Positions 999 through 62,836 of a stretch of 63,019 nucleotides of DNA are shown in pieces. Each line of letters starts with the position of its first letter. Position 1 is the stretch's first letter. This DNA comes from Bacillota bacterium. GTDB taxonomy: Bacteria; Bacillota; Dethiobacteria; DTU022. Made by a program: the position numbers and the translations under genes. The stretch is from contig JAAZIN010000098.1 in assembly GCA_012800855.1 (NCBI GenBank), positions 1 to 63,019 of the forward strand, in the 5' to 3' direction. Below the pieces are notes generated by a model. That model saw nothing but the letters and a program-made list of their open reading frames with translations. It did no database searches and was not told where the DNA came from.

Positions 999-1472
999 TC
1001 ACTTGGGCTGGTAGTAGCCCTTGCTTTGCATGTAGTTGAAGATCCCCTCGCCGTGCTGCTGCTCCTCCTTTTGGATATGGTTGAGCACCTGCCGCACCTG
1101 GGCGTTGGTCATCTCGAAGATGGCGGTGTCGTAGGTTGCCGAGACATACTTCTCGGTGGAAAGCATATCCTGGCAGAGAGCGGCGTCATTTTGCGCCTCC
1201 GCCGTGAGCGGCTGATTGATCGCTCCCGGGCTCGGCTGAGCCTGTGCCTGGCCCTGCTGCTGCCCGCCTCCCATGGCCGGCGCCTGCCCGGACAGGATCT
1301 GGTTGATCGAGTTCAGGTGCTGCTGCTCATGACCGGCGTAGGTGGAGAAGAGCTGCTTTAGTTCGGGGTCCCGGGCCTGCTGCGCATAGGAGCTGTACTT
1401 GAGGATGCAGAGCTCCTCGTGAGCCTTCTGGTCCTCCAGGAGAAGCCGCTCTTTTTGGGTTAGCTGGATCAT
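999..1472 (-). CDS. spore coat protein, CotF-like (Coat_F domain)
   Basis: 157-aa ORF with two helical halves (LLEDQKAHEELCILKY, then DMLSTEKYVSATYDTAIFE...HIQKEEQQH) separated by a Gln/Gly/Ala-rich linker, typical of the Coat F family. AGGAGGTG RBS lies 6 nt before the ATG. Confidence 0.75.
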   Translation of the reverse strand: MIQLTQKERLLLEDQKAHEELCILKYSSYAQQARDPELKQLFSTYAGHEQQHLNSINQILSGQAPAMGGGQQQGQAQAQPSPGAINQPLTAEAQNDAALCQDMLSTEKYVSATYDTAIFEMTNAQVRQVLNHIQKEEQQHGEGIFNYMQSKGYYQPK

Positions 1473-1590: not shown

Positions 1591-1779
1591 ATGGCGAGAA
1601 TATATGGAGAGAGAATCATGCTGCGGGAATAACGGAAAGAAGATTTTCCAGTAATCCGCAAATGGGTAAACGATCCGGAGGTCTCCCCATTTCTTTCCGA
1701 TATTTTTCTTTTTCCCCATACGACCGCAGATACTGAAAGATTCCTCAATACTAATCTGAAAATAAACTATATTACGTAA
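1591..1779 (+). pseudogene. GNAT (RimJ/RimL-like) N-acetyltransferase remnant: N-terminal ~60 codons with an in-frame TAA
   Basis: My own translation from ATG 1591 (GGGAGGTG RBS upstream) gives MARIYGERIMLRE*RKEDFPVIRKWVNDPEVSPFLSDIFLFPHTTADTERFLNTNLKINYIT*. It has the N-terminal GNAT signature (LRExxxEDxxxxxxWxNDPEV) but a stop at codon 14 and no acetyl-CoA-binding core. Local GC is lower than the surroundings. Confidence 0.55.
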
Positions 1780-1791
1780 ATAGTCATTTTT

Positions 1792-1809
1792 GTGACGCAT
1801 TTACGTCAC
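1792..1809. promoter_or_regulatory. perfect inverted repeat GTGACG-N6-CGTCAC (candidate enhancer/UAS); related palindrome TTACGTAA at 1772-1779
   Basis: 6+6 bp perfect palindrome about 150 bp upstream of the sigma-54 promoter, which is the usual distance for bacterial enhancer-binding-protein sites. Confidence 0.3.
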
Positions 1810-1944: not shown

Positions 1945-1960
1945 TGGCACGGGCTTTGCA
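1945..1960 (+). promoter_or_regulatory. sigma-54 (RpoN) -24/-12 promoter
   Basis: TGGCACgggctTTGCA matches the consensus TGGCAC-N5-TTGCA exactly. GG and GC are 12 nt apart, and the element sits ~55 nt upstream of the FNT1 start. Confidence 0.7.
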
Positions 1961-2013: not shown

Positions 2014-3102
2014 GTGTCCAAGAGGTGCGAATTCTGGAAGGATTACGATTCCGTAGGAGGTCCCGTTTCGTACTGCGAGCTGGCCGCTTTCAACCGTCCC
2101 GTCAACCCCGATTTCCTCCTTAAGATCGGCTGCACCCCGGAGAAGAGAAAAGAATGCCTGGGGACCATGGAGCTGAACATCGGGGCGGGGGCGGTTCCGG
2201 GAGCGGCGCCGCTGCCGGCGGGCGAGCAGGTTACGCCGGTGGGTTCCTTCTGTCCGCCTCCCGAGATTGCCAAAACCATGGTGGGCGTGGCCGAGAAGAA
2301 GGTAACGACGAAAATGAGCTCCCTGGTTCCGCTGGCTATCCTGGCCGGGGCCTACATCGCCCTGGGAGCGATTATGTTCACCATCATCACCAATGACCTC
2401 GCCGGCTACATTGGGGATGGCCTCACCCGCATGATCGGGGGGATTTCCTTCTCCCTCGGCCTGATCCTGGTTATCCTCGGCGGGGCGGAGCTCTTTACCG
2501 GCAACAACCTCATCATGACCGGCTTCCTGGAGAAGAAGGTCACCGGCAAGCAGCTTTTAAGCAACTGGTTCTGGGTTTACCTCTTCAACTTTGTCGGCTC
2601 CCTGCTCGTGGTCCTGCTCTTCTACTACTCCGGCATCTGGAAGGCCAATGCCGGCGCCATCGGCACTCGGGCGGTAGCCATTGCCGCTTCCAAGGCGTCG
2701 CTGCCCTGGGTGGAAGCGCTCTTCAGGGGAATCTTGTGCAACTGGCTGGTCTGCCTGGCGGTCTGGCTGGCCAATGCCGCACGCGACGTCATCGGCAAAA
2801 TTGTCGGGATCATGATCCCCATTGCCGCTTTTGTTGCTGCCGGCTTCGAGCACAGCATCGCCAACATGTACTTTATCCCCATGGGCCTGGCCCTGAAAAA
2901 TCAACCCGTGCTGCAGTCTGCCTTGCAGGCGATTAGTAATATTGATGGCCTGACCCTGGGAGGGTTTTTCCTGAATAACCTCATTCCCGTGACCATCGGC
3001 AACATTATCGGCGGGGCCGGCTTTGTGGCTGCCACGTACTGGGGAGCTTACCTGCGCCCCATGCTTTCGAAAAAGGACTTTGCCGCCAACGGCAAGGCCT
3101 AG
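2014..3102 (+). CDS. formate/nitrite transporter (FNT) family channel with an N-terminal Cys4 extension, paralog 1
   Basis: FNT core motifs are present: LAILAGAYIALGA, GAELFTGNN, FEHSIANMYF. The start is set at GTG 2014 (GAAGGAGG RBS 10 nt upstream) by alignment with the N-terminus of paralog 2. The 1792-2013 part of the track ORF is non-coding leader. Confidence 0.9.
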   Translation: MSKRCEFWKDYDSVGGPVSYCELAAFNRPVNPDFLLKIGCTPEKRKECLGTMELNIGAGAVPGAAPLPAGEQVTPVGSFCPPPEIAKTMVGVAEKKVTTKMSSLVPLAILAGAYIALGAIMFTIITNDLAGYIGDGLTRMIGGISFSLGLILVILGGAELFTGNNLIMTGFLEKKVTGKQLLSNWFWVYLFNFVGSLLVVLLFYYSGIWKANAGAIGTRAVAIAASKASLPWVEALFRGILCNWLVCLAVWLANAARDVIGKIVGIMIPIAAFVAAGFEHSIANMYFIPMGLALKNQPVLQSALQAISNIDGLTLGGFFLNNLIPVTIGNIIGGAGFVAATYWGAYLRPMLSKKDFAANGKA

Positions 3103-3166
3103 CTGTTTAACAAAATGGCTTGCTACCGCGGGGGGGAAGTGATCAGGAAGGGAGTGACATAAGAAG

Positions 3167-3418
3167 ATGGAAAAACTGGTCCAATGCCTGCACTGGAAAG
3201 AATACCAGGGCTTAAACGGATGGGTTATGTTTTGCAGCGCCGGCGCCTTTGCGAAGCGGTTGACCAGGGAAGAGGCCGAACGTTGCGGCTGCACCGACGC
3301 CCAGAGAGCTACCTGCAAGAGAATCATGGAGAGCAACCTGGGCTACGGGCTGGTCCCGGATATCCTAGAAGGGGAAAAGGTAGCCTTGCGCGAGAAGAAA
3401 GCCGTATCCGAGATGTAG
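3167..3418 (+). CDS. small Cys-rich protein, free-standing copy of the FNT N-terminal Cys4 module
   Basis: 83-aa ORF with an AAGGGAG RBS. It has the same C-X15-C-X18-C-X7-C spacing and shares flanking residues with the N-termini of both FNT paralogs. Confidence 0.65.
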   Translation: MEKLVQCLHWKEYQGLNGWVMFCSAGAFAKRLTREEAERCGCTDAQRATCKRIMESNLGYGLVPDILEGEKVALREKKAVSEM

Positions 3419-3445
3419 CCCTATCCTGTCTTCTCAAAAGGGGAT

Positions 3446-3483
3446 GAGGCTCCGCGTTGCCCGCGGGGCCTCTTTTTCTTTTT
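3446..3483 (+). terminator. Rho-independent terminator
   Basis: GAGGCTCCGCG-ttgcc-CGCGGGGCCTC stem followed by TTTTTCTTTTT. Confidence 0.8.
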
Positions 3484-3681
3484 AAGCGCTTGTGAAAAAA
3501 GGAATTTACGACCTTTTCAGCGAATAACTAAACAATGTTGAGCGGTTTTCACGCTTGCCTGCACGAAGCGACAACGGTGAAAAGGAGATGAGGATACCGG
3601 GGAGCCAGCGCAAAGATTTCGGAGACTGAGCAAAAGACAGAGAACACACAGCAAAAGATACCGCAAAAAGGAGGTCTAGGC

Positions 3682-4743
3682 ATGGCTGACAAGTGCCAGT
3701 TTTTAAAGACGTACAGCACGGGCAACGGTTCTGTGGTCTACTGTGAATTGGCTGCGTTCAACCAGCCGGTAAGTTCCGATTTTCTAACTAAAATCGGCTG
3801 CACCGCGGAGATGAGAAAGGAGTGCCCCGGGGGCACGGAGCTGGATGCGAGGTTAAGTGCGGCCAATCCCCCGGTTACACCGATTATTTCCTGCACCCCT
3901 CCCCCGGATCTGGCCAAGACCATGGTCGGCGTGGCTGAAAAGAAAGCCAACACGGGCATGCCCTCGCTCATGTGGCTGGCCATCCTCGCCGGAGCCTACA
4001 TCGCCCTCGGTGCGATCATGTTTACCATTATCACCAATGACCTGGCCACATTTATCGGCGACGGCCTCACCCGGCTCATCGGAGGGATTTCCTTCTCCAT
4101 TGGCCTGATCCTGGTTATCCTGGCCGGGGCGGAGCTCTTCACCGGCAACAACCTCATTTTCACCGGTTACCTGGAGAAGAAAGTGACGGGCAAGCAGGTT
4201 TTGAGCAACTGGTTCTGGGTCTACCTCTTCAATTTTGTCGGTTCCCTCATCGTGGTCTTCCTGTTCTACTACTCCGGCATCTGGAAGGCCAACGGCGGCG
4301 CCATCGGCGTGCGGGCGGTGAGCATTGCCGCATCAAAAGCCAGCCTCCCCTGGGTAGAGGCACTCTTCCGCGGCATTTTCTGTAACTGGCTGGTTTGCCT
4401 GGCGGTATGGCTCTCCAATGCCAGCCGCGATGTCATCAGCAAGATCCTGTCAATCATGATTCCCATCGCCGCTTTTGTTGCCGCCGGCTTCGAGCACAGC
4501 ATCGCCAACATGTACTTCATTCCCATGGGCCTGGCCCTGAAAAATCATCCTGCCCTGGCGGGGCTGCTTAATCCTGCGGCCATTGAAGGGCTGACTCTGA
4601 GAGGATTCTTCCTGAACAACCTCATCCCGGTAACCATCGGCAACCTCATCGGCGGCGTGCTCTTCGTGGCGACTGTTTACTGGACCGTCTACCTGAGGCC
4701 TGCCTCTGCCGTCAAGAAGGCTGCCGCCAAGAGCGGGGCATAA
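3682..4743 (+). CDS. formate/nitrite transporter (FNT) family channel with an N-terminal Cys4 extension, paralog 2
   Basis: 353-aa ORF with an AAAGGAGG RBS. It carries the same FNT motifs as paralog 1 and is very similar to it over the whole core, at both protein and DNA level. Confidence 0.9.
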   Translation: MADKCQFLKTYSTGNGSVVYCELAAFNQPVSSDFLTKIGCTAEMRKECPGGTELDARLSAANPPVTPIISCTPPPDLAKTMVGVAEKKANTGMPSLMWLAILAGAYIALGAIMFTIITNDLATFIGDGLTRLIGGISFSIGLILVILAGAELFTGNNLIFTGYLEKKVTGKQVLSNWFWVYLFNFVGSLIVVFLFYYSGIWKANGGAIGVRAVSIAASKASLPWVEALFRGIFCNWLVCLAVWLSNASRDVISKILSIMIPIAAFVAAGFEHSIANMYFIPMGLALKNHPALAGLLNPAAIEGLTLRGFFLNNLIPVTIGNLIGGVLFVATVYWTVYLRPASAVKKAAAKSGA

Positions 4744-4775
4744 CAAGCAGTCTCCGGAATGTTCTTTCCATATAA

Positions 4776-4805
4776 CCCCGGCCCTGGGCCGGGGTTTTCT
4801 TTTTG
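4776..4805 (+). terminator. Rho-independent terminator
   Basis: CCCCGGCC-ctg-GGCCGGGG stem followed by TTTTCTTTTT. Confidence 0.8.
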
Positions 4806-4908
4806 CCTAAAAGGGGGCGAAATAGGGTTTTTAGCCATCTTTGTAGAAACATTAAAACAGTATAGATTAGAATTGAGATTGGTTCTATTGTGAAGGAATG
4901 AAATAGTA

Positions 4909-6057
4909 GTGTATATCAGCAAATTTATGGCCCCGGAAATAATTTTCGGCAAGGGTTCGCTGAACCAGGTGGGCGATTGCTGCAGCCGCCTGGGCTCTTC
5001 GCGGGTCTTCCTTGTTGCCGACAAAGGGGTCATCCGGCACGGGTGGGTTGAAAAAGCGCTGCCCTTCCTGGAGGAGGCGGGGCTGGATTACGAGATCTGG
5101 TCCGGGTTCTCCTCCAACCCGCGCGACTACGAAGTGGAGGAGGGCGCGCGGATCTACGGTGATTGCGGCTGCGACGCGGTGCTGGCTATCGGCGGCGGCA
5201 GCGCCATAGATGCGGCCAAGGCGGTGGCGACTCTCTCCACGAATGAGGGGAGAATCCAAGATTACGAGGGAATCGACCTGATTAAAAACCCGCTGCCGCC
5301 GCTGATCGTGGTCCCCTCCACCGCCGGTTCGGGCTCCGAGGTCTCCCAGTTTTCCATAATCGCCGACAGCGAGCGCAAGATCAAGATGACCATCATCTCC
5401 AAGTCGCTGGTGCCCGACATCTCCATCACCGACCCGCTCATCCTTTCCACCATAGACAGCCGGGTTACCGCCCAGACGGGCATGGAGGCGCTGAGCCACG
5501 CCATCGAAGCCTACCTCTCCCTGGCGGCGACGGATATGACCGATCTCCATGCGCTGCATGCCATCGAGCTCATCTCGCGCCACCTGCGCGCCTCCGTGGC
5601 CAGCCAGGTGAACGAGGAGGCCAAGGTGGCCATGGGCCAGGCGAGCCTGCATGCCGGCATTGCCTTCTCCAATGCCGCCCTGGGGCTGGCCCACGCCATG
5701 ACCCACCAGGTGGGGGGGCTGCTCGATCTGCCCATTGGCATGATCAGCGCCGTCATCCTGCCGCATGTGATGCGCTTCAACATGCTTGCCTCCATCGACA
5801 AGTATGTGCGCATTGCCGCGTCCATGGGGGCGCAGGTGGAGCAGATGCCGCCTCGCGAAGCGGCGGAGAAGGCCATAGAGATGGTCCGGGAGCTGGCCCA
5901 GGACCTAGGCATCCCCTCGGGCCTGGCCGAACTGGGGCTGCCCGAAGAGGTGCTGCCCCAGTTAAGCGAAAATGCAATCAAGGATGCCTGCTTCATCACC
6001 AACCCGCGCGATGCTGAAGTCTCCGACATTATCGAAATTTTCCGCTCGGCACTTTAA
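4909..6057 (+). CDS. iron-containing (group III) alcohol dehydrogenase
   Basis: 382-aa ORF with Fe-ADH hallmarks: GGGSAIDAAK, the TTAGTGSE-like STAGSGSEVS, and the His-rich metal site HAMTHQVGG...LPH. Confidence 0.9.
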   Translation: MYISKFMAPEIIFGKGSLNQVGDCCSRLGSSRVFLVADKGVIRHGWVEKALPFLEEAGLDYEIWSGFSSNPRDYEVEEGARIYGDCGCDAVLAIGGGSAIDAAKAVATLSTNEGRIQDYEGIDLIKNPLPPLIVVPSTAGSGSEVSQFSIIADSERKIKMTIISKSLVPDISITDPLILSTIDSRVTAQTGMEALSHAIEAYLSLAATDMTDLHALHAIELISRHLRASVASQVNEEAKVAMGQASLHAGIAFSNAALGLAHAMTHQVGGLLDLPIGMISAVILPHVMRFNMLASIDKYVRIAASMGAQVEQMPPREAAEKAIEMVRELAQDLGIPSGLAELGLPEEVLPQLSENAIKDACFITNPRDAEVSDIIEIFRSAL

Positions 6058-6076: not shown

Positions 6077-7786
6077 ATGGTTATTAAGAACAAAAAAGAG
6101 CTCATAGAGAAGCTCACGGGGATTCACAGCTCCAAAAAATCGTACTACGTGGAGCTGAAAAAGAAGATCTACGAGACCACCCGCCGGAACATCCAGCTGG
6201 AGATCATCAACCAGCTGGCCAAGGGGATTGGCATCGACATGTCCTTCCAGGAGATTATTGAGAGCGTAATCCCCAAGATGCAGGCGGTGGTTTCTTTTGA
6301 TACGCTCAGCCTTTACGTCATTGACAAGGGCACCCTGGTGAACCGCACCGTCTTTGTGCAGAACCACAAGGAGGGCGCTGCGGCCAGGGCTGCCGAGGGT
6401 GAAGAGGCGGAGGCGCAAAGAGCGGGGAAGGCTGCCGAGGCCTTCTGGCAGGTCCTCAGCGAGAAGAGAACGATCCTCGTTGATCAACTGGGGGCGGAGG
6501 CGGCGGACGCTTCCGACAGTGGACTTCCTTTCATGGTCCTCATCCCCCTGCTGGTTAAAGAGAAGGTTATCGGGGTGCTGGAGGTAATCTGCAAGGAGGG
6601 ATTTGACCGGAGCGACATTCTCTTCCTGGAGCAGGTTGCCGACCAGCTGGCGGTGGGCCTGGAGAATGCCCGCCTTTACAACGAGGTCTTGCAGCACAAG
6701 CGGGATTGGGAGATCACCTTTTCGGCGGTGACCGACCTGCTGGTGTTTATCAACTGCGACTACCGCATCCAGAGGGTGAACCAGGCGGTAATGGACTTCT
6801 TTACCATGCCCGAGGAGGACATCCTGGGCCAGAAGTGCTACCGCCTTTTTTACGGGCGGGAAACGAAGTGCAACCCCTGTCTGGCTGACCAGGTCTTCCG
6901 CACCCAGAAGACGGCGTACCTGCAGTCACGCACGCGCTTCAACCGGGTCCTGGACATCTTTGCCTACCCCGCGTACACGGAAGACAACAAGCCCTACGGC
7001 GTCACCTATTACGCCAAGGACGTGACCCGCTTTGTCGATTCCATCAAGTTTGTCTCCATGGGGGAGATGTCCGCGGGGGTGGCCCACGAGCTCAACAGCC
7101 CCCTCACGGCCATCGTGGGCAATTCGCAGCTGCTGCTGCGGGAAACCGATCCTTCAAGCCCCCACTACCAGCTGATCAAGGATATCAAGAACTGCGGCAT
7201 GCGCTGTCAGCGCATTATCCAGAACCTGCTCACTTTTTCCCGGCAGGAGGAGTACACTTTTGAAGAGGTGGACCTGAACAAGGTCGTGGAGAGCGCCCTG
7301 GGCCTGCTCGCCTACCAGATCGAGAAGAGCAATATCGAGCTGGTGCTGAAGCTGGCGCCGAAGCTGCCGCCGCTGCTGGGCAACGCGCAGGGCCTGGAGC
7401 AAATCATCATCAACCTGCTGCTCAACGCCAAGGACGCCATCGAGAGCAAGGCGCAGCTTGGGGGAATGGAGGAGAAGGGAAGGATCGTCATCGAAACCCG
7501 CGCCTCAGACAAGGTTGTAGCCGTGCATGTCAGGGACAACGGCTGCGGCATCGATGATGAAGATCTGCCCCACGTGTTCAATCCCTTTTTCACCACCAAG
7601 CGGGTTGGCCGGGGCACGGGGCTGGGCCTTTCGGTCAGCCTGGGCATTGCCCAGTCGCACGGGGGGGTCATCGACGTGGAGAGCGTCGCCGGGAAGGGGA
7701 GCACCTTCAGCCTCATCCTGCCCCTGGAGAAGGCCTACCAGAACAACAACCATAACAACCATAACCACGGGAGAGAGGGGGGTTGA
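6077..7786 (+). CDS. soluble GAF-PAS sensor histidine kinase
   Basis: H-box AHELNSPLTAI plus N, G1 and G2 boxes (NLLLNAKDA, DNGCGI, GTGLGLS). A GAF-like segment and a PAS-like segment lie upstream, and no TM helices are evident. The start is taken at ATG 6077, 20 nt after the adh stop. Confidence 0.85.
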   Translation: MVIKNKKELIEKLTGIHSSKKSYYVELKKKIYETTRRNIQLEIINQLAKGIGIDMSFQEIIESVIPKMQAVVSFDTLSLYVIDKGTLVNRTVFVQNHKEGAAARAAEGEEAEAQRAGKAAEAFWQVLSEKRTILVDQLGAEAADASDSGLPFMVLIPLLVKEKVIGVLEVICKEGFDRSDILFLEQVADQLAVGLENARLYNEVLQHKRDWEITFSAVTDLLVFINCDYRIQRVNQAVMDFFTMPEEDILGQKCYRLFYGRETKCNPCLADQVFRTQKTAYLQSRTRFNRVLDIFAYPAYTEDNKPYGVTYYAKDVTRFVDSIKFVSMGEMSAGVAHELNSPLTAIVGNSQLLLRETDPSSPHYQLIKDIKNCGMRCQRIIQNLLTFSRQEEYTFEEVDLNKVVESALGLLAYQIEKSNIELVLKLAPKLPPLLGNAQGLEQIIINLLLNAKDAIESKAQLGGMEEKGRIVIETRASDKVVAVHVRDNGCGIDDEDLPHVFNPFFTTKRVGRGTGLGLSVSLGIAQSHGGVIDVESVAGKGSTFSLILPLEKAYQNNNHNNHNHGREGG

Positions 7787-7790
7787 TCGG

Positions 7791-9290
<1,500 letters not shown>

Positions 9291-12840: not shown

Positions 12841-13070
12841 GCGAAGATAGGGCCTCCTTTAACAAGAAAATGGGGGCCGCCTGCCTGTGGACGGCAGCCG
12901 GCGCCGGCGCGGGCCTCTTCCGGCAGGGCGTTGAAAGAAAACCCTGCCCTTGGAAGAGAGGATTCTGCCCTGCGCCAGGGAATATTATACTTTAAAAATC
13001 TGCCCAGGTGGCGGGAAAACCCTTCTCCCGCCGCCGCGAGTGGCCTGGGCCGCCCCGGGGAGGCGATGAC

Positions 13071-13871
13071 ATGGCTGAACTATCTGCCAGGAAAGAGATT
13101 ACTGTAATCCGGGAAGGCGAAAGGCGTCTCACCGACGACGAGGTGGTCGTGGAGGCGCCGCTGACGATCTACCTTAACGGCCGGGAACTGGTGACGCTCC
13201 TCTGCACGCCCGACAAGCTGGAGAGCCTGGCCCTCGGCTTCTTGCGCTCCGAAGGCTTGCTCAACTCTCTCGATGATGTGGCCGCGCTGCGCCTGCGCGA
13301 CGACAGGGGGGCGGTGGAGGTGGAGCTGAAGAATAAAGGCGGCCTGCTGGAGAAGCTCTACGGCCGGCGCACAATAACCTCGGGCTGCGGCAAGGGCACC
13401 ATCTTCTACAGCGCCCTCGACGCCCTGCGCAGCAGCCCCGTGCGCGGCGACAGTGTTACGCTTACCGCCGGCGAGGTCCATGCCCTGATGAGAGAGCTGC
13501 AGGAAAGGGCCACCCTGTTCAAGGCTACCGGGGGCGTGCACGCCGCCGCCCTGGCCGGCGGCGGAAAGATCCTCATCTTCTGCGAAGATATCGGGCGGCA
13601 CAACGCCGTGGACAAGATTATCGGGGAGTGCCTGCGGCAGGGAATGGCCATGGAGGACAAGGTGCTGGTCTGCAGCGGCCGCCTGAGCTCGGAGATCCTG
13701 CTCAAGGCGGCGAAGCTGCGCCTGCCCATGCTGATTTCGCGGGCGGCCCCGACCACGCTGAGCATCGAGCTGGCTCAAACGCTGAACATCACCCTTGTCG
13801 GTTTTGTCCGCGGGCGGCGGATGAATATTTACACTCACCCCCACCGGGTGATAGATGCCCGCAACGCTTGA
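13071..13871 (+). CDS. fdhD: formate dehydrogenase accessory sulfurtransferase FdhD
   Basis: FdhD motifs SGCGKGT (catalytic Cys loop), TGGVHAAAL and GRHNAVDK. The start is set at ATG 13071 with a GGGGAGG RBS. Confidence 0.85.
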   Translation: MAELSARKEITVIREGERRLTDDEVVVEAPLTIYLNGRELVTLLCTPDKLESLALGFLRSEGLLNSLDDVAALRLRDDRGAVEVELKNKGGLLEKLYGRRTITSGCGKGTIFYSALDALRSSPVRGDSVTLTAGEVHALMRELQERATLFKATGGVHAAALAGGGKILIFCEDIGRHNAVDKIIGECLRQGMAMEDKVLVCSGRLSSEILLKAAKLRLPMLISRAAPTTLSIELAQTLNITLVGFVRGRRMNIYTHPHRVIDARNA

Positions 13872-31595: not shown

Positions 31596-31781
31596 GCCAA
31601 AAGCCCTGCTGTGCTCGTGTAAACCGGTTAAGTTTTGAGCTAACACACATTTAAAGGGAGCCCGGGCTTTAGCTGTAGCGTAGAAGCCTCCTTCGAGAGG
31701 ACCTACAAAGCAGCTAAGAGGGCACCCACCTTTAGGGGGAAGGGTTCAAAACCCAACGGTCCACGGCATGGCGGGGTTTTT
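31596..31781 (+). ncRNA. ssrS: probable 6S RNA (SsrS)
   Basis: ~186 nt with no ORF. The 5' end (AAAAGCCCUGCUGUGC) pairs over 16 bp, counting G-U pairs, with the 3' end (GCACGGCAUGGCGGGGUUUUU). Further helices (GUUUUGA/UCAAAAC and ACCGGUU/AACGGU) extend a long irregular rod around an internal bubble and an apical hairpin. In Bacillus subtilis the 6S-1 gene also lies next to aspS. Confidence 0.55.
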
Positions 31782-59769: not shown

Positions 59770-60043
59770 CCAACACTGCCATGAGAAAGGCAATGAACGG
59801 GCCAGTAGGCTGCAGGACGGCTCTTGCAGAGAGCCGGGGAGAGGTGCAAGCCCGGTAGAGCGCTGCAGCTGAAGATCTCCCGGGAGTCACCGTGCGAAAT
59901 CCGCGCCAGAGGCGGAGAGTAGACACGGGCGGAGCCCCCGTTAAAGGGCATGCGGAGAGGGGCCGCCGGCGGCAGTGCGGCCGGCGGCTAGCAGGGTGGT
60001 ACCGCGGGAGAAATCTCGTCCCTAACCAGGGAGGAGATTTTTT
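59770..60043 (+). promoter_or_regulatory. T-box riboswitch leader (Ile) with terminator/antiterminator
   Basis: T-box sequence AGGGTGGTACCGCG at 59993-60006. Stem I elements are an AGTA box (59804-59807), AGAGA (59828-59832) and a GGTGCAA distal loop. The candidate specifier is ATC at 59875-59877. The terminator is AAATCTCGTCCCT-aacc-AGGGAGGAGATTT plus a T-run at 60011-60043. Confidence 0.85.
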
Positions 60044-60076
60044 GTTATTATGGGAAGCAGGAGGCGAGGAAGCACG

Positions 60077-62836
60077 ATGGAGGATTACCGTGAGACACTG
60101 AACCTTCCCCGGACCGATTTTCCCATGCGGGCGCAGCTGCCCATGCGGGAACCTGAAATCCTCAAGTACTGGGATAAAATAGATATTTACGGGCTGGTCC
60201 AGCAGCAGCGGCGGGGGGCGCCGAAGTTTATCCTGCACGACGGCCCCCCCTATGCCAACAACGATATCCACATGGGCACTGCCCTGAACAAGGTGCTCAA
60301 GGATTTCGTCATCAAGTACAAGACCATGCGCGGCTTCGACTGCCCCTATGTACCCGGCTGGGATACGCACGGGCTGCCCATTGAGCACCAGATCATCAAA
60401 AGCAGGGGGATTAACCGGAAGGAGGTCTCCCCCGTTGAGTTCCGGCGCATGTGCCGCGATTATGCCCTGGAGTACGTGGATATCCAGCGGGAGCAGTTCC
60501 GCCGCCTGGGGGTGCGGGGCTGCTGGGACCATCCCTACCTCACCCTGGAGAAGGAGTATGAGGCCCGCCAGATAGCTGTTTTCGGGGAGATGGTGGCGAA
60601 AGGCTACATCTACAAGGGCCTCCGGCCGGTCTACTGGTGCACCAGTTGCGAAACTGCCTTGGCCGAGGCCGAAGTGGAGTATGCCGACCACTGCACCGAT
60701 TCCCTTTACGTCAAGTTTCCGGTGATCGACGACCGCGGCCTCCTTGGGGGTGCGGAAGGCACTTACTGCATCATCTGGACGACGACCGCCTGGACCATCC
60801 CGGCCAACCTGGCCATCTGCCTCCATCCCGAGCTCGACTACGTGCTGGCGGAGGCAGGCGGGGAGAAGTACCTTCTTGCCGAGGGGCTGCTGGAAAGCGT
60901 CAGCGCCGAGCTGGGCGGCGGCCCCTGGCAGGTGCGGCGCCGCTTCAAGGGGCGGGAGCTGGAGGGGATTGTCTGCCGCCATCCCCTCTTCGACCGGGAA
61001 TCGCCGCTCATCCTGGGCGAGCACGTCACCCTGGAGCAGGGCACCGGCTGCGTCCATACCGCTCCCGGGCACGGCCTGGAGGACTACGAGGTGGGGCGGC
61101 TCTACAAGCTGCCGGTGCTGAGCCCCATTGACGACCACGGCCACTTTACCGCCGAGGCGGGAGAGTTTGCCGGGATGTCCTATGCCGAGGGCGGCGAGGC
61201 GGTGATCCGGGCGCTGGAGCGAGCGGGAGCCTTGATGAAGGCTTCTTCCTACGAGCACCAGTACCCCCACTGCTGGCGCTGCAAGGAGCCGGTGATTTTC
61301 CGGGCCACGGAGCAGTGGTTCGCCTCCATTGACGGCTTCCGCAAGGAGGCCCTCGAAGCCGTCCGCAAGGTGAAATGGACTCCTCCCTGGGGCGAGGAGC
61401 GCATCTACAACATGATCGCCGAGCGGCAGGACTGGTGCATCTCGCGCCAGCGGATCTGGGGGGTGCCCATCCCCATCTTCTACTGCCGGGAATGCCAGGA
61501 GACGATTATCGATCCCCAGGTCATCGAGGCGGTATCCCGTCTCTTTGCCCAGGAGGGATCCGATGCTTGGTTTGCCCGGGAGGCGGCGGAGATCCTGCCG
61601 CCGGGCTACAAGTGCCCCCGCTGCGGCGGCAGCTCCTTCCGCAAGGAAACAGATACCATGGATGTCTGGTTCGACTCGGGCACGAGCCACTTTGCCGTGC
61701 TCGAGGGGCGCCCGGAGCTGCGCTGGCCGGCGGACCTCTACCTGGAGGGGAGCGACCAGTACCGCGGCTGGTTCCACTCCTCGCTCCTCACGGCGGTGGC
61801 GGTGCGCGGCGAGCCGCCCTACCGCGCCGTCCTCAGCCACGGCTGGGTCGTCGACGGCGAGGGGCGGAAGATGTCCAAGTCGCTGGGCAACGTCATCGCC
61901 CCCGCGGAGATTATCGAGGAATACGGCGCCGATATCCTGCGGCTCTGGGTGGCCTCGGCCGATTATACCAGCGACATCCACCTTTCCCCGGAAATATTGA
62001 AGCAGCTTTCCGAGGTTTACAGGAAAATCCGCAACACCTGCCGCTTCCTCTTGGGGAACTGCTATGATTTCGATCCCTCCAGGGAGGCGGTGGACTACCG
62101 CTCTCTCTCGGAGCTGGACCGCTGGGTGCTGCACCGGCTCGCCCGGCTCATCAAGCGGGTCACGCAGGCGTACGAGGATTACAGCTACCACATCGTCTAC
62201 CAGGCGCTGCACAATTTCTGCACCGTGGACCTGAGCAACTTTTACCTTGACGTGCAGAAAGATCGCCTCTACTGCTCGGCGCCGGATGATCCGGGGCGGC
62301 GGGCCGTGCAGACGGTGATGATGATCGTTCTCGAATGCCTCACCCGGATGATGGCTCCCATACTCACCTTTACCGCCGAGGAGATCTGGCAGCTGCTGCC
62401 CGGCGAGCGCCCGCCCAGCGTCCAGATGGCCGGCTGGCCCGAGGCGGACCCGCAGTGGGAGGACCCGGAGTTGGAGCGGCGCTGGGAGGAGCTGCTGGCG
62501 GTGCGCGGCGAGGCCACCCGCGTCCTCGAGGAGGCGCGCCGGGAGAAGCTCATCCGCGGTTCTCTCGAAGCGGCTCTCGCCATCTGGGCCGAGGGCGATC
62601 TCTACCGGCTGCTGGAGCAGTACCGGGAGCTGCTGGCCGAAATCTTTATCGTCTCTTCCGTGGAACTCCATGAAGGCCTGAACCAGGCGCCTGCCGGGGC
62701 ACAGGAGGGGCAGGAGCTGCCGCTTAAAATAATGGTGAAGAAGGCGCCGGCGGCAAAATGCCCCCGCTGCTGGATCTACGCCGCACCGGCCGAAGGCGAA
62801 CTCTGCCCCCGCTGCCATGCCCTCCTTCACGCCTAG
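60077..62836 (+). CDS. ileS: isoleucyl-tRNA synthetase
   Basis: Class I motifs HMGT (HIGH variant, PYANNDIHMGTA) and KMSKS, the CP1 editing domain, and the C-terminal Zn finger CPRC...CPRC. The start is set at ATG 60077 (GAGGAA 5 nt upstream). Confidence 0.95.
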   Translation: MEDYRETLNLPRTDFPMRAQLPMREPEILKYWDKIDIYGLVQQQRRGAPKFILHDGPPYANNDIHMGTALNKVLKDFVIKYKTMRGFDCPYVPGWDTHGLPIEHQIIKSRGINRKEVSPVEFRRMCRDYALEYVDIQREQFRRLGVRGCWDHPYLTLEKEYEARQIAVFGEMVAKGYIYKGLRPVYWCTSCETALAEAEVEYADHCTDSLYVKFPVIDDRGLLGGAEGTYCIIWTTTAWTIPANLAICLHPELDYVLAEAGGEKYLLAEGLLESVSAELGGGPWQVRRRFKGRELEGIVCRHPLFDRESPLILGEHVTLEQGTGCVHTAPGHGLEDYEVGRLYKLPVLSPIDDHGHFTAEAGEFAGMSYAEGGEAVIRALERAGALMKASSYEHQYPHCWRCKEPVIFRATEQWFASIDGFRKEALEAVRKVKWTPPWGEERIYNMIAERQDWCISRQRIWGVPIPIFYCRECQETIIDPQVIEAVSRLFAQEGSDAWFAREAAEILPPGYKCPRCGGSSFRKETDTMDVWFDSGTSHFAVLEGRPELRWPADLYLEGSDQYRGWFHSSLLTAVAVRGEPPYRAVLSHGWVVDGEGRKMSKSLGNVIAPAEIIEEYGADILRLWVASADYTSDIHLSPEILKQLSEVYRKIRNTCRFLLGNCYDFDPSREAVDYRSLSELDRWVLHRLARLIKRVTQAYEDYSYHIVYQALHNFCTVDLSNFYLDVQKDRLYCSAPDDPGRRAVQTVMMIVLECLTRMMAPILTFTAEEIWQLLPGERPPSVQMAGWPEADPQWEDPELERRWEELLAVRGEATRVLEEARREKLIRGSLEAALAIWAEGDLYRLLEQYRELLAEIFIVSSVELHEGLNQAPAGAQEGQELPLKIMVKKAPAAKCPRCWIYAAPAEGELCPRCHALLHA

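Follow-up and report, generated by a model that had tools for sequence, protein, structure and literature searches.

A conserved four-cysteine module, fused to FocA-type channels and encoded free-standing beside them, as a candidate regulatory domain in uncultured Bacillota

In digesters and sediments, formate is among the main carriers of electrons between syntrophs and methanogens, and we know of no account of how its export is controlled outside enterobacteria. In the AmtB-GlnK pair, the soluble partner GlnK, a PII trimer, senses 2-oxoglutarate and ATP, and the channel AmtB itself is without any domain resembling GlnK. In the ZAS anti-sigma factor RsrA, in Hsp33, in SoxR and in WhiB-like proteins, the invariant cysteines of small cytoplasmic domains hold zinc or an iron-sulfur (Fe-S) cluster and switch the binding of a partner or of DNA. 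Gating of the formate channel FocA of Escherichia coli requires its N-terminal helix, to which PflB binds (PMC11841067). In a survey of prokaryotic FNT channels, in which no cysteine domain is mentioned, the N-terminal regions of the formate, nitrite and hydrosulfide types measure 25-32 residues (PMC5525234). Here we describe two FNT channels, FNT1 and FNT2, and a small protein encoded between them, ORF83, each of which opens with a four-cysteine module of about 60 residues. The three genes lie on a 63,019-nucleotide stretch from a Bacillota bacterium of the Dethiobacteria (contig JAAZIN010000098.1 of assembly GCA_012800855.1), the whole of which is called the window below. They share with the E. 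coli system a FocA-type core and an arrangement in which the passage of formate would depend on a cytoplasmic N-terminal element that a soluble protein contacts (PMC11841067). However, the N-terminus of E. coli FocA is short, largely disordered and devoid of a cysteine domain, and it partners with a glycyl-radical enzyme of large size, whereas FNT1 bears a predicted folded four-cysteine domain on a long linker ahead of the helix, and the co-encoded candidate partner is a paralogue of that domain.

The three genes are on the same strand (+). FNT1 (2014-3102, 362 residues) most likely starts at the GTG at 2014, which is preceded by GGAGG, and the same 362-residue call was made by gene callers on identical contigs. 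Its module covers residues 1-62 (2014-2199), with cysteines at residues 5, 21, 40 and 48 (codons at 2026, 2074, 2131 and 2155), and is followed by a flexible Pro/Ala/Gly-rich linker (residues 63-80, 2200-2253). ORF83 (3167-3418, 83 residues) is a free-standing protein whose residues 1-64 constitute the module, with cysteines at residues 7, 23, 42 and 50 (codons at 3185, 3233, 3290 and 3314). The module of FNT2 (gene 3682-4743, 353 residues) covers residues 1-60 (3682-3861), with cysteines again at residues 5, 21, 40 and 48 (codons at 3694, 3742, 3799 and 3823); it is degenerate past Cys4, carries the substitution W8L and has lost Met52. In all three copies the cysteines follow the pattern C-x15-C-x18-C-x7-C. 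This pattern had been pointed out in a model's reading of the letters alone (the sequence-only reading), and the three four-cysteine sequences that it quoted are present exactly as given. The flanking motifs that it listed (W-K-x-Y, G-x-V-x-[YF]-C, A-[FY], G-C-T and R-x-x-C) turned out to be conserved across the whole family. It had also described an N-terminal extension of about 60 residues on both channels. The extension exists, but it is longer than that: 80 residues precede the PPPEIAK motif in FNT1 and 72 precede PPPDLAK in FNT2, corresponding to a module of about 62 residues plus a Pro/Ala-rich linker.

ORF83 matches the N-terminus of FNT1 with 34% identity (BLASTP, E=4e-14) and that of FNT2 with 30% identity (E=6e-8). 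Moreover, a profile of the module family searched against the six-frame translation of the whole 63 kb recovered three copies (E=2e-34, 7e-28 and 4e-21) and no fourth copy in the window, the next best match having E>1. The BLASTP E-values and the six-frame scan rule out a chance pattern and indicate that the three copies are homologous.

Homologues of ORF83 fall into 42 clusters at the 90% identity level, every one of them annotated as hypothetical, and are found in genomes of uncultured Bacillota, Dethiobacteria and Syntrophomonadaceae. Free-standing members are about 75-100 residues long. Conservation of the cysteines was assessed on 139 distinct copies from the collected loci, 72 channel-fused and 67 free. 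All carry the four cysteines at x15/x18/x7 with three exceptions: one free copy, on a contig of 0.36x coverage, and two fused copies in which one extra residue precedes Cys2. The four cysteines are retained even in members only about 30% identical; among divergent members, x6 replaces x7 before Cys4 in P0079 and P0080, and a Tyr occupies the position of Cys4 in P0051. Additional neighbouring cysteines are present in some copies, as CYC in 22 of the 72 channel-type copies and as CGC in 40 of the 67 free-type copies. The surroundings of Cys2 distinguish the two classes, with YCELAAFN invariant in channel-type copies and MFCSAGA[FY] in free-type copies. Tethered and free copies are therefore not redundant. 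Among ORF83 orthologues, the ratio of nonsynonymous to synonymous substitution rates (dN/dS) is about 0.1, with a range of 0.06-0.23 wherever dS is measurable, and substitutions at the three codon positions number 621, 507 and 1441. These figures rule out a non-coding explanation and strongly indicate that ORF83 is translated and under strong purifying selection. Thus two of the properties on which the sequence-only reading had made its case depend, persistence of the cysteine pattern in orthologues and translation of the 83-residue frame, both held.

The fold of ORF83 was predicted with AlphaFold2 from an alignment of 43 sequences, giving a mean predicted local distance difference test (pLDDT) score of 84.7, with a core above 90 and five models ranging from 82.7 to 84.7. 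The predicted domain is alpha/beta, with the order beta-hairpin, short helix, strand and two helices. In the model, the hairpin is preceded by Cys1 and ends at Cys2, while Cys3 separates the final two helices and Cys4 is part of the final one. The model of full-length FNT1 is of low confidence (pLDDT 60, 13 sequences) and was used only for the order of secondary structures, which is the same in its module as in ORF83, and for the disorder of the linker, where pLDDT is about 30. Across 64 channels, the distance from Cys4 to the motif of the N-terminal helix varies from 24 to 40 residues.

The module could not be assigned to any named domain in the sequence-only reading, and no search overturned this. 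Pfam-A and NCBIfam, queried with ORF83 and with the N-terminal 80 residues, gave no match to the module and found the FNT core (PF01226) alone. When 43 module members were scanned against profiles at E<=10, matches were at chance level only; DUF2769 was hit by two members (E 0.047) and was rejected because about two such hits are expected by chance. Sequence and profile searches of the PDB with the module returned nothing below E of about 0.15, the sequence matches to a SQHop-cyclase-domain protein (E=0.15) and to phosducin (E about 0.8) being at chance level. With E<=0.001 or a template modelling (TM) score of at least 0.5 taken to define a known fold, Foldseek found no fold match for the ORF83 model (best PDB match E=0.84, TM 0.23; best BFVD match E=0.6). 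A zinc ribbon or rubredoxin-like site, which would call for two CxxC (or CxxH) knuckles, finds no support, as the 139 distinct copies have no CxxC and Foldseek gave no zinc-ribbon match. The motifs of 4Fe-4S ferredoxins and WhiB-like proteins (CxxCxxCxxxCP, C-Xn-C-X2-C-X5-C) are likewise absent, with no Pfam match to Fer4 or Whib, so that an Fe-S cluster, if present, would be bound through a new motif. In the literature searched, no FNT channel was described as bearing a cysteine domain. The conclusion that the module is an unannotated family without sequence or fold relatives detectable by the searches used survives every check. Finally, an exhaustive HMMER scan of 1.84 billion representatives returned 47 proteins, all from uncultured anaerobic Bacillota, including one spurious repeat match to a 3404-residue surface protein (P0086). 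This narrow distribution limits the breadth of the finding.

Downstream of its linker, FNT1 is a FocA-type channel (core 2254-3102; PF01226, E=4e-81). The linker and core of FNT2 occupy 3862-4743, and the two cores are about 80% identical. Both proteins pass the Form_Nir_trans model PF01226, FNT1 with 272.5 bits and FNT2 with 270.3 bits against a cutoff of 34.6, and the general fnt model TIGR00790. FocA is the best-scoring named subfamily for both, although the scores of 244.8 and 246.4 bits remain below the cutoff of the FocA equivalog TIGR04060 (290.1). Among PDB entries, FNT1 scores highest against E. coli FocA (3kcu, 183 bits). In the alignment with 3kcu, FNT1 retains the equivalents of E. 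coli T91 and H209 and the C-terminal Y-L-R (AELFTGN, FEHSIANM and YLR, respectively), that is, the pore Thr/His and the Y-L-R motif as they are defined in PMC9380403 and PMC5572259. Only the window's closest relatives have a second module-FNT. FNT2 is thus a recent duplicate of FNT1, and the ancestral unit has one fused and one free copy.

The regulatory DNA around these genes points to control by sigma-54. An exact match to a -24/-12 promoter, TGGCACGGGCTTTGCA, lies at 1945-1960 (+), 54 nucleotides before the FNT1 start, and is the sole sigma-54 match in the window when at most one mismatch is allowed. In most loci, TGGCAY-N5-TTGCW is found 52-83 nucleotides before the first module-FNT gene, and the sequence of the spacer varies. 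Further upstream, candidate activator sites were read from the sequence: TTACGTAA at 1772-1779 (+) and the palindrome GTGACGCATTTACGTCAC (GTGACG-N6-CGTCAC) at 1792-1809 (+), about 150 nucleotides upstream of the promoter. GTGACG/CGTCAC or TACGTCA-type motifs with an ACGT core occur in most related loci, mostly 120-175 nucleotides before the promoter, and the TACGTCA 7-mer is present in 45 of 67 distinct upstream regions. The motifs at 1772-1809 are probably binding sites for the sigma-54 activator encoded in the same cassette. ORF83 is followed by an intrinsic terminator (3446-3482, +; 11-bp stem with 9 GC pairs, then a T-run), and relatives retain this hairpin with differing stem sequences. 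With a sigma-54 promoter before it and a strong terminator after it, FNT1-ORF83 is therefore predicted to be a two-gene sigma-54 operon. The -24 GG and -12 GC elements at canonical spacing and an adjacent activator of the NtrC/AtoC type with a Sigma54_activat domain, as expected of sigma-54-dependent operons, are both found from sequence.

In the leader of FNT2, right after the ORF83 terminator, lies a 19-mer, GCTTGTGAAAAAAGGAATT (3488-3506, +), identical in all 9 compared loci with a second module-FNT. This leader gave no match to Rfam and has no sigma-54 promoter. A second conserved block was noted at about 3576-3597, reading GTGAAAAGGAG[A/T]TGAGGATACC. For FNT2, these conserved blocks could act as a promoter/operator or as a leader element. 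The gene ends at its own intrinsic terminator (4774-4806, +).

Three further genes complete the cassette: an iron-containing alcohol dehydrogenase (Fe-ADH; 4909-6057, +), a cytoplasmic GAF/PAS histidine kinase (6077-7786, +) and a sigma-54-dependent response regulator of the NtrC/AtoC type (7791-9290, +). The order module-FNT, free module, Fe-ADH, GAF/PAS histidine kinase, sigma-54 response regulator is found in the loci of 45 of 47 GTDB species, and, where contigs extend far enough, in about 40 other loci from metagenomes. The co-occurrence of the small gene with the extended channel, which the sequence-only reading had singled out as worth a survey, is thus the rule, and in nearly all loci the Fe-ADH gene directly follows the free module. 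The same cassette exists in a high-GC lineage in which the free module is 36% identical and the module-FNT is 424 residues long. The nearest described counterpart of the regulatory genes is ErcA, a regulatory Fe-ADH paired with the sensor kinase ErcS in the ethanol-oxidation network of Pseudomonas (PMC12997753). The cassette Fe-ADH scores best against the ErcA model NF041833, more than 100 bits over lactaldehyde reductase, and a cytoplasmic sensor kinase directly follows it, as in ercA-ercS (PMC12997753). However, its score stays below the ErcA cutoff (464.7 vs 550 bits), the kinase has GAF/PAS domains, and the output would run, in anaerobic Bacillota, through a sigma-54 activator to an operon for a formate channel.

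Variant architectures were found alongside this common arrangement. In rare cases the module is fused to a DNA-binding domain: it is joined to a C-terminal HTH_17 helix-turn-helix (HTH) domain in P0044 and P0097-P0100, and an HTH_3 domain precedes it in P0071; a scan of viral contigs with the latter protein gave matches to the HTH part only. In three species, the free-module gene at the usual cassette position carries the HTH_17 domain, and the following FNT is without the cysteine part. In this HTH_17 lineage, the second FNT (L058:969-1946, also L059 and L060) is 325 residues long, has lost its cysteine part and starts with MHISKFVTPE; this start resembles that of the Fe-ADH, MYISKFMAPE, and looks like a recombination scar. 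P0043 is a tandem protein with one module of the channel type and one of the free type. P0064 (199 residues) begins as a module of the channel type with its linker and continues, in frame, from the middle of a sigma-54 AAA+ domain, which would reflect either a large deletion in a cassette or an assembly chimera. Two metagenome-assembled genomes (MAGs) of the Syntrophomonadaceae have an extra 86-residue free-type gene behind a major facilitator superfamily (MFS) transporter, with no FNT nearby and with its own sigma-54 promoter 58 nucleotides upstream (L054:4338-6261, L055:2495-4419). On one metagenome contig, a free channel-type gene near PotABC/MscS also has its own sigma-54 promoter, about 60 nucleotides upstream. 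Two divergent members lie elsewhere, one near an aldehyde:ferredoxin oxidoreductase and one near a glyoxalase and a metallo-beta-lactamase-fold gene. Lastly, in the Dethiobacteria MAGs L047 and L052, the Fe-ADH is absent or reduced to a 50-residue remnant, and the module pair, kinase and activator are retained.

The explanation that we tentatively prefer, with slightly less than even confidence, is that the module is a cytoplasmic regulatory domain that binds a metal (zinc or Fe-S) and is attached to the channel, the soluble paralogue being its partner. The four invariant cysteines of this compact domain most likely hold zinc or an Fe-S cluster. Structural disulfides are unlikely because the N-terminus of FNT channels is cytoplasmic (PMC5572259) and because the hosts, which come from anoxic digesters and sediments, are anaerobic; a metal site is the standard reading of such a domain. 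As the FNT1 module sits ahead of the N-terminal helix on a flexible linker, of 20-40 residues in the family, each channel pentamer would display five copies, and the tethered domain would control the passage of formate through the channel. Soluble ORF83, produced from the same sigma-54-dependent transcript, would pair or compete with the tethered copy as a pseudo-homodimer. Channel activity would then track a cytoplasmic signal, redox or metal state, sensed via the cysteines. The set of ErcA-like Fe-ADH, GAF/PAS kinase and sigma-54 activator would turn the operon on, probably in response to an alcohol or aldehyde, and formate export would be induced jointly with alcohol/aldehyde oxidation in presumably syntrophic anaerobes. 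The analysis shows that the three copies are homologous and conserved and that ORF83 is coding, with a confidently predicted fold of no known relatives, a conserved gene order and a sigma-54 promoter; that the module binds metal, contacts its counterpart, gates the channel and answers to the proposed inducer is inferred.

Two known types of system offer analogies for this regulatory domain. As in AmtB-GlnK, a channel and a small cytoplasmic protein would form a strictly conserved two-gene operon, in which the soluble part is proposed to attach to the cytoplasmic side of the channel and to shut or tune it; unlike GlnK, however, the module has neither the sequence nor the fold of a PII protein. 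Its association with HTH domains would fit the use made of four-cysteine redox or metal sensors such as RsrA, Hsp33, SoxR and WhiB-like proteins, from which it differs by the spacing 15/18/7, the lack of CxxC, a predicted fold that resembles none of theirs and the negative Pfam and Foldseek searches.

Several observations weigh against a tethered regulatory domain with a soluble partner. The 15/18/7 spacing fits no known zinc or Fe-S motif. FNT2 is present without a second free partner, and a few free modules, those neighbouring the MFS transporter, PotABC/MscS and the aldehyde oxidoreductase, are away from any FNT. The locus L091:5368-9388 (the same in L092) comes from a close relative syntenic with the window (metallo-beta-lactamase-fold protein, CotF/rubrerythrin-like protein, module-FNT, ABC transporter); there the module-FNT is kept, and the free module, FNT2, Fe-ADH, kinase and activator are deleted. 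The sigma-54 promoter of L091 is slightly degraded (GGGCACAGGCTTTGCG). In a mirror-tree analysis by partial Mantel test, tethered and free modules gave a positive partial r of 0.24 (p 0.001), but one below that of the control pairs, which leaves the test with little weight. P0043, whose two joined modules would otherwise count in favour of this reading, may represent two adjacent genes read through, its junction having a Shine-Dalgarno-like sequence followed by ATG.

A bolder form of the regulatory-domain explanation, which we regard as possible though doubtful, is that the tethered/free pair constitutes a metal or redox sensor switch of new fold, in which the soluble copy would, in one state, dock on the channel's tethered copy and plug or open the pore, and in the other state be released, the HTH variants then acting on DNA. 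If this is true, syntrophic Bacillota would tie the export of formate to partner species to the redox state of the cell by a self-contained switch, of a kind not described for FNT channels. That a FocA-type channel is regulated via such a domain family and partner arrangement, not described before, is plausible but unproven. The locus nevertheless adds a conserved unannotated domain family and a regulatory hypothesis for FocA-type channels without a PflB partner, together with a defined five-gene sigma-54 cassette that ties a sensor set of the alcohol/aldehyde type to formate transport. Since the module is small, soluble and confidently predicted, its metal content, structure and binding to the channel are directly testable.

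Among the rival explanations, the one that survives best, and to which we give about the same limited credence as to the pore switch, places the action of the free module on gene expression. It would feed back on the kinase/activator or on DNA, and the fused copy would independently sense the same signal. The HTH fusions speak for this. A free module fused to HTH_17 at the same cassette position in three species, and the existence of an HTH_3-module fusion, represent an architecture typical of sensor or dimerisation domains, the module forming the non-DNA-binding half of transcription factors. The same fusions also support the preferred reading, since they weigh towards a sensory or regulatory role and away from one in structure alone. 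Free modules that stand apart from any FNT (L054, L055 and L066) have their own sigma-54 promoter and similar upstream motifs, and the mirror-tree test revealed no specific co-evolution of tethered and free modules. However, most free modules are without a DNA-binding domain. Moreover, free modules are predicted to be almost always co-transcribed with the channel, whereas the regulators form a separate unit past a terminator or a gap. The tethered regulatory domain with its soluble partner remains our preferred reading.

It is unlikely that the module is instead a docking platform that brings a formate-making or formate-consuming enzyme, such as NAD-dependent formate dehydrogenase (FDH) or the Fe-ADH, to the mouth of the channel, with the free copy as the enzyme-side adaptor. 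PflB does dock on the N-terminus of E. coli FocA (PMC11841067), and an NAD-dependent FDH operon lies 6-9 kb upstream on the same contig, with FdhD encoded downstream. The distances of the module and of the Fe-ADH correlate when other proteins are controlled for, which is weak evidence (partial r 0.47). Yet the FDH genes are outside the conserved cassette, the MAGs L047 and L052 have lost or reduced the Fe-ADH and still retain the module pair, and the DNA-binding fusions are left unexplained by docking. Least probable of all is a structural zinc-stabilised element for oligomerisation or stability, or a small Fe-S electron carrier incidentally linked to the channel, for although four invariant cysteines in a compact fold would suit a purely structural metal site, characterised FNT pentamers assemble without such a domain (N-terminal regions averaging 25-32 residues, PMC5525234), stability alone hardly explains a soluble paralogue in about 100 loci, class-specific residues and HTH fusions, and of all readings this one is the least compatible with the conserved soluble paralogue and its class-specific residues.

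Other features of the surroundings were recorded. The NAD-type FDH upstream of FNT1 (L001:1-2974, on the same contig, outside the window) includes a subunit similar to NuoF, and two open reading frames, of 351 and 527 residues, make up its catalytic subunit, the break probably being a selenocysteine TGA; FdhD is encoded at 13008-13871 of the window. Upstream of FNT1 and divergent from it, a 157-residue protein is encoded at 999-1472 (-). The identical gene matches Pfam Coat_F and, weakly, Rubrerythrin, NCBIfam gives only sub-threshold encapsulin-associated ferritin-like matches, and the gene adjoins the cassette in the closest relatives only. Finally, the window contains a 6S RNA gene (31600-31781, +; 105 bits) and a T-box leader (59784-60026, +; 95 bits) ahead of a 928-residue open reading frame at 60050-62836.

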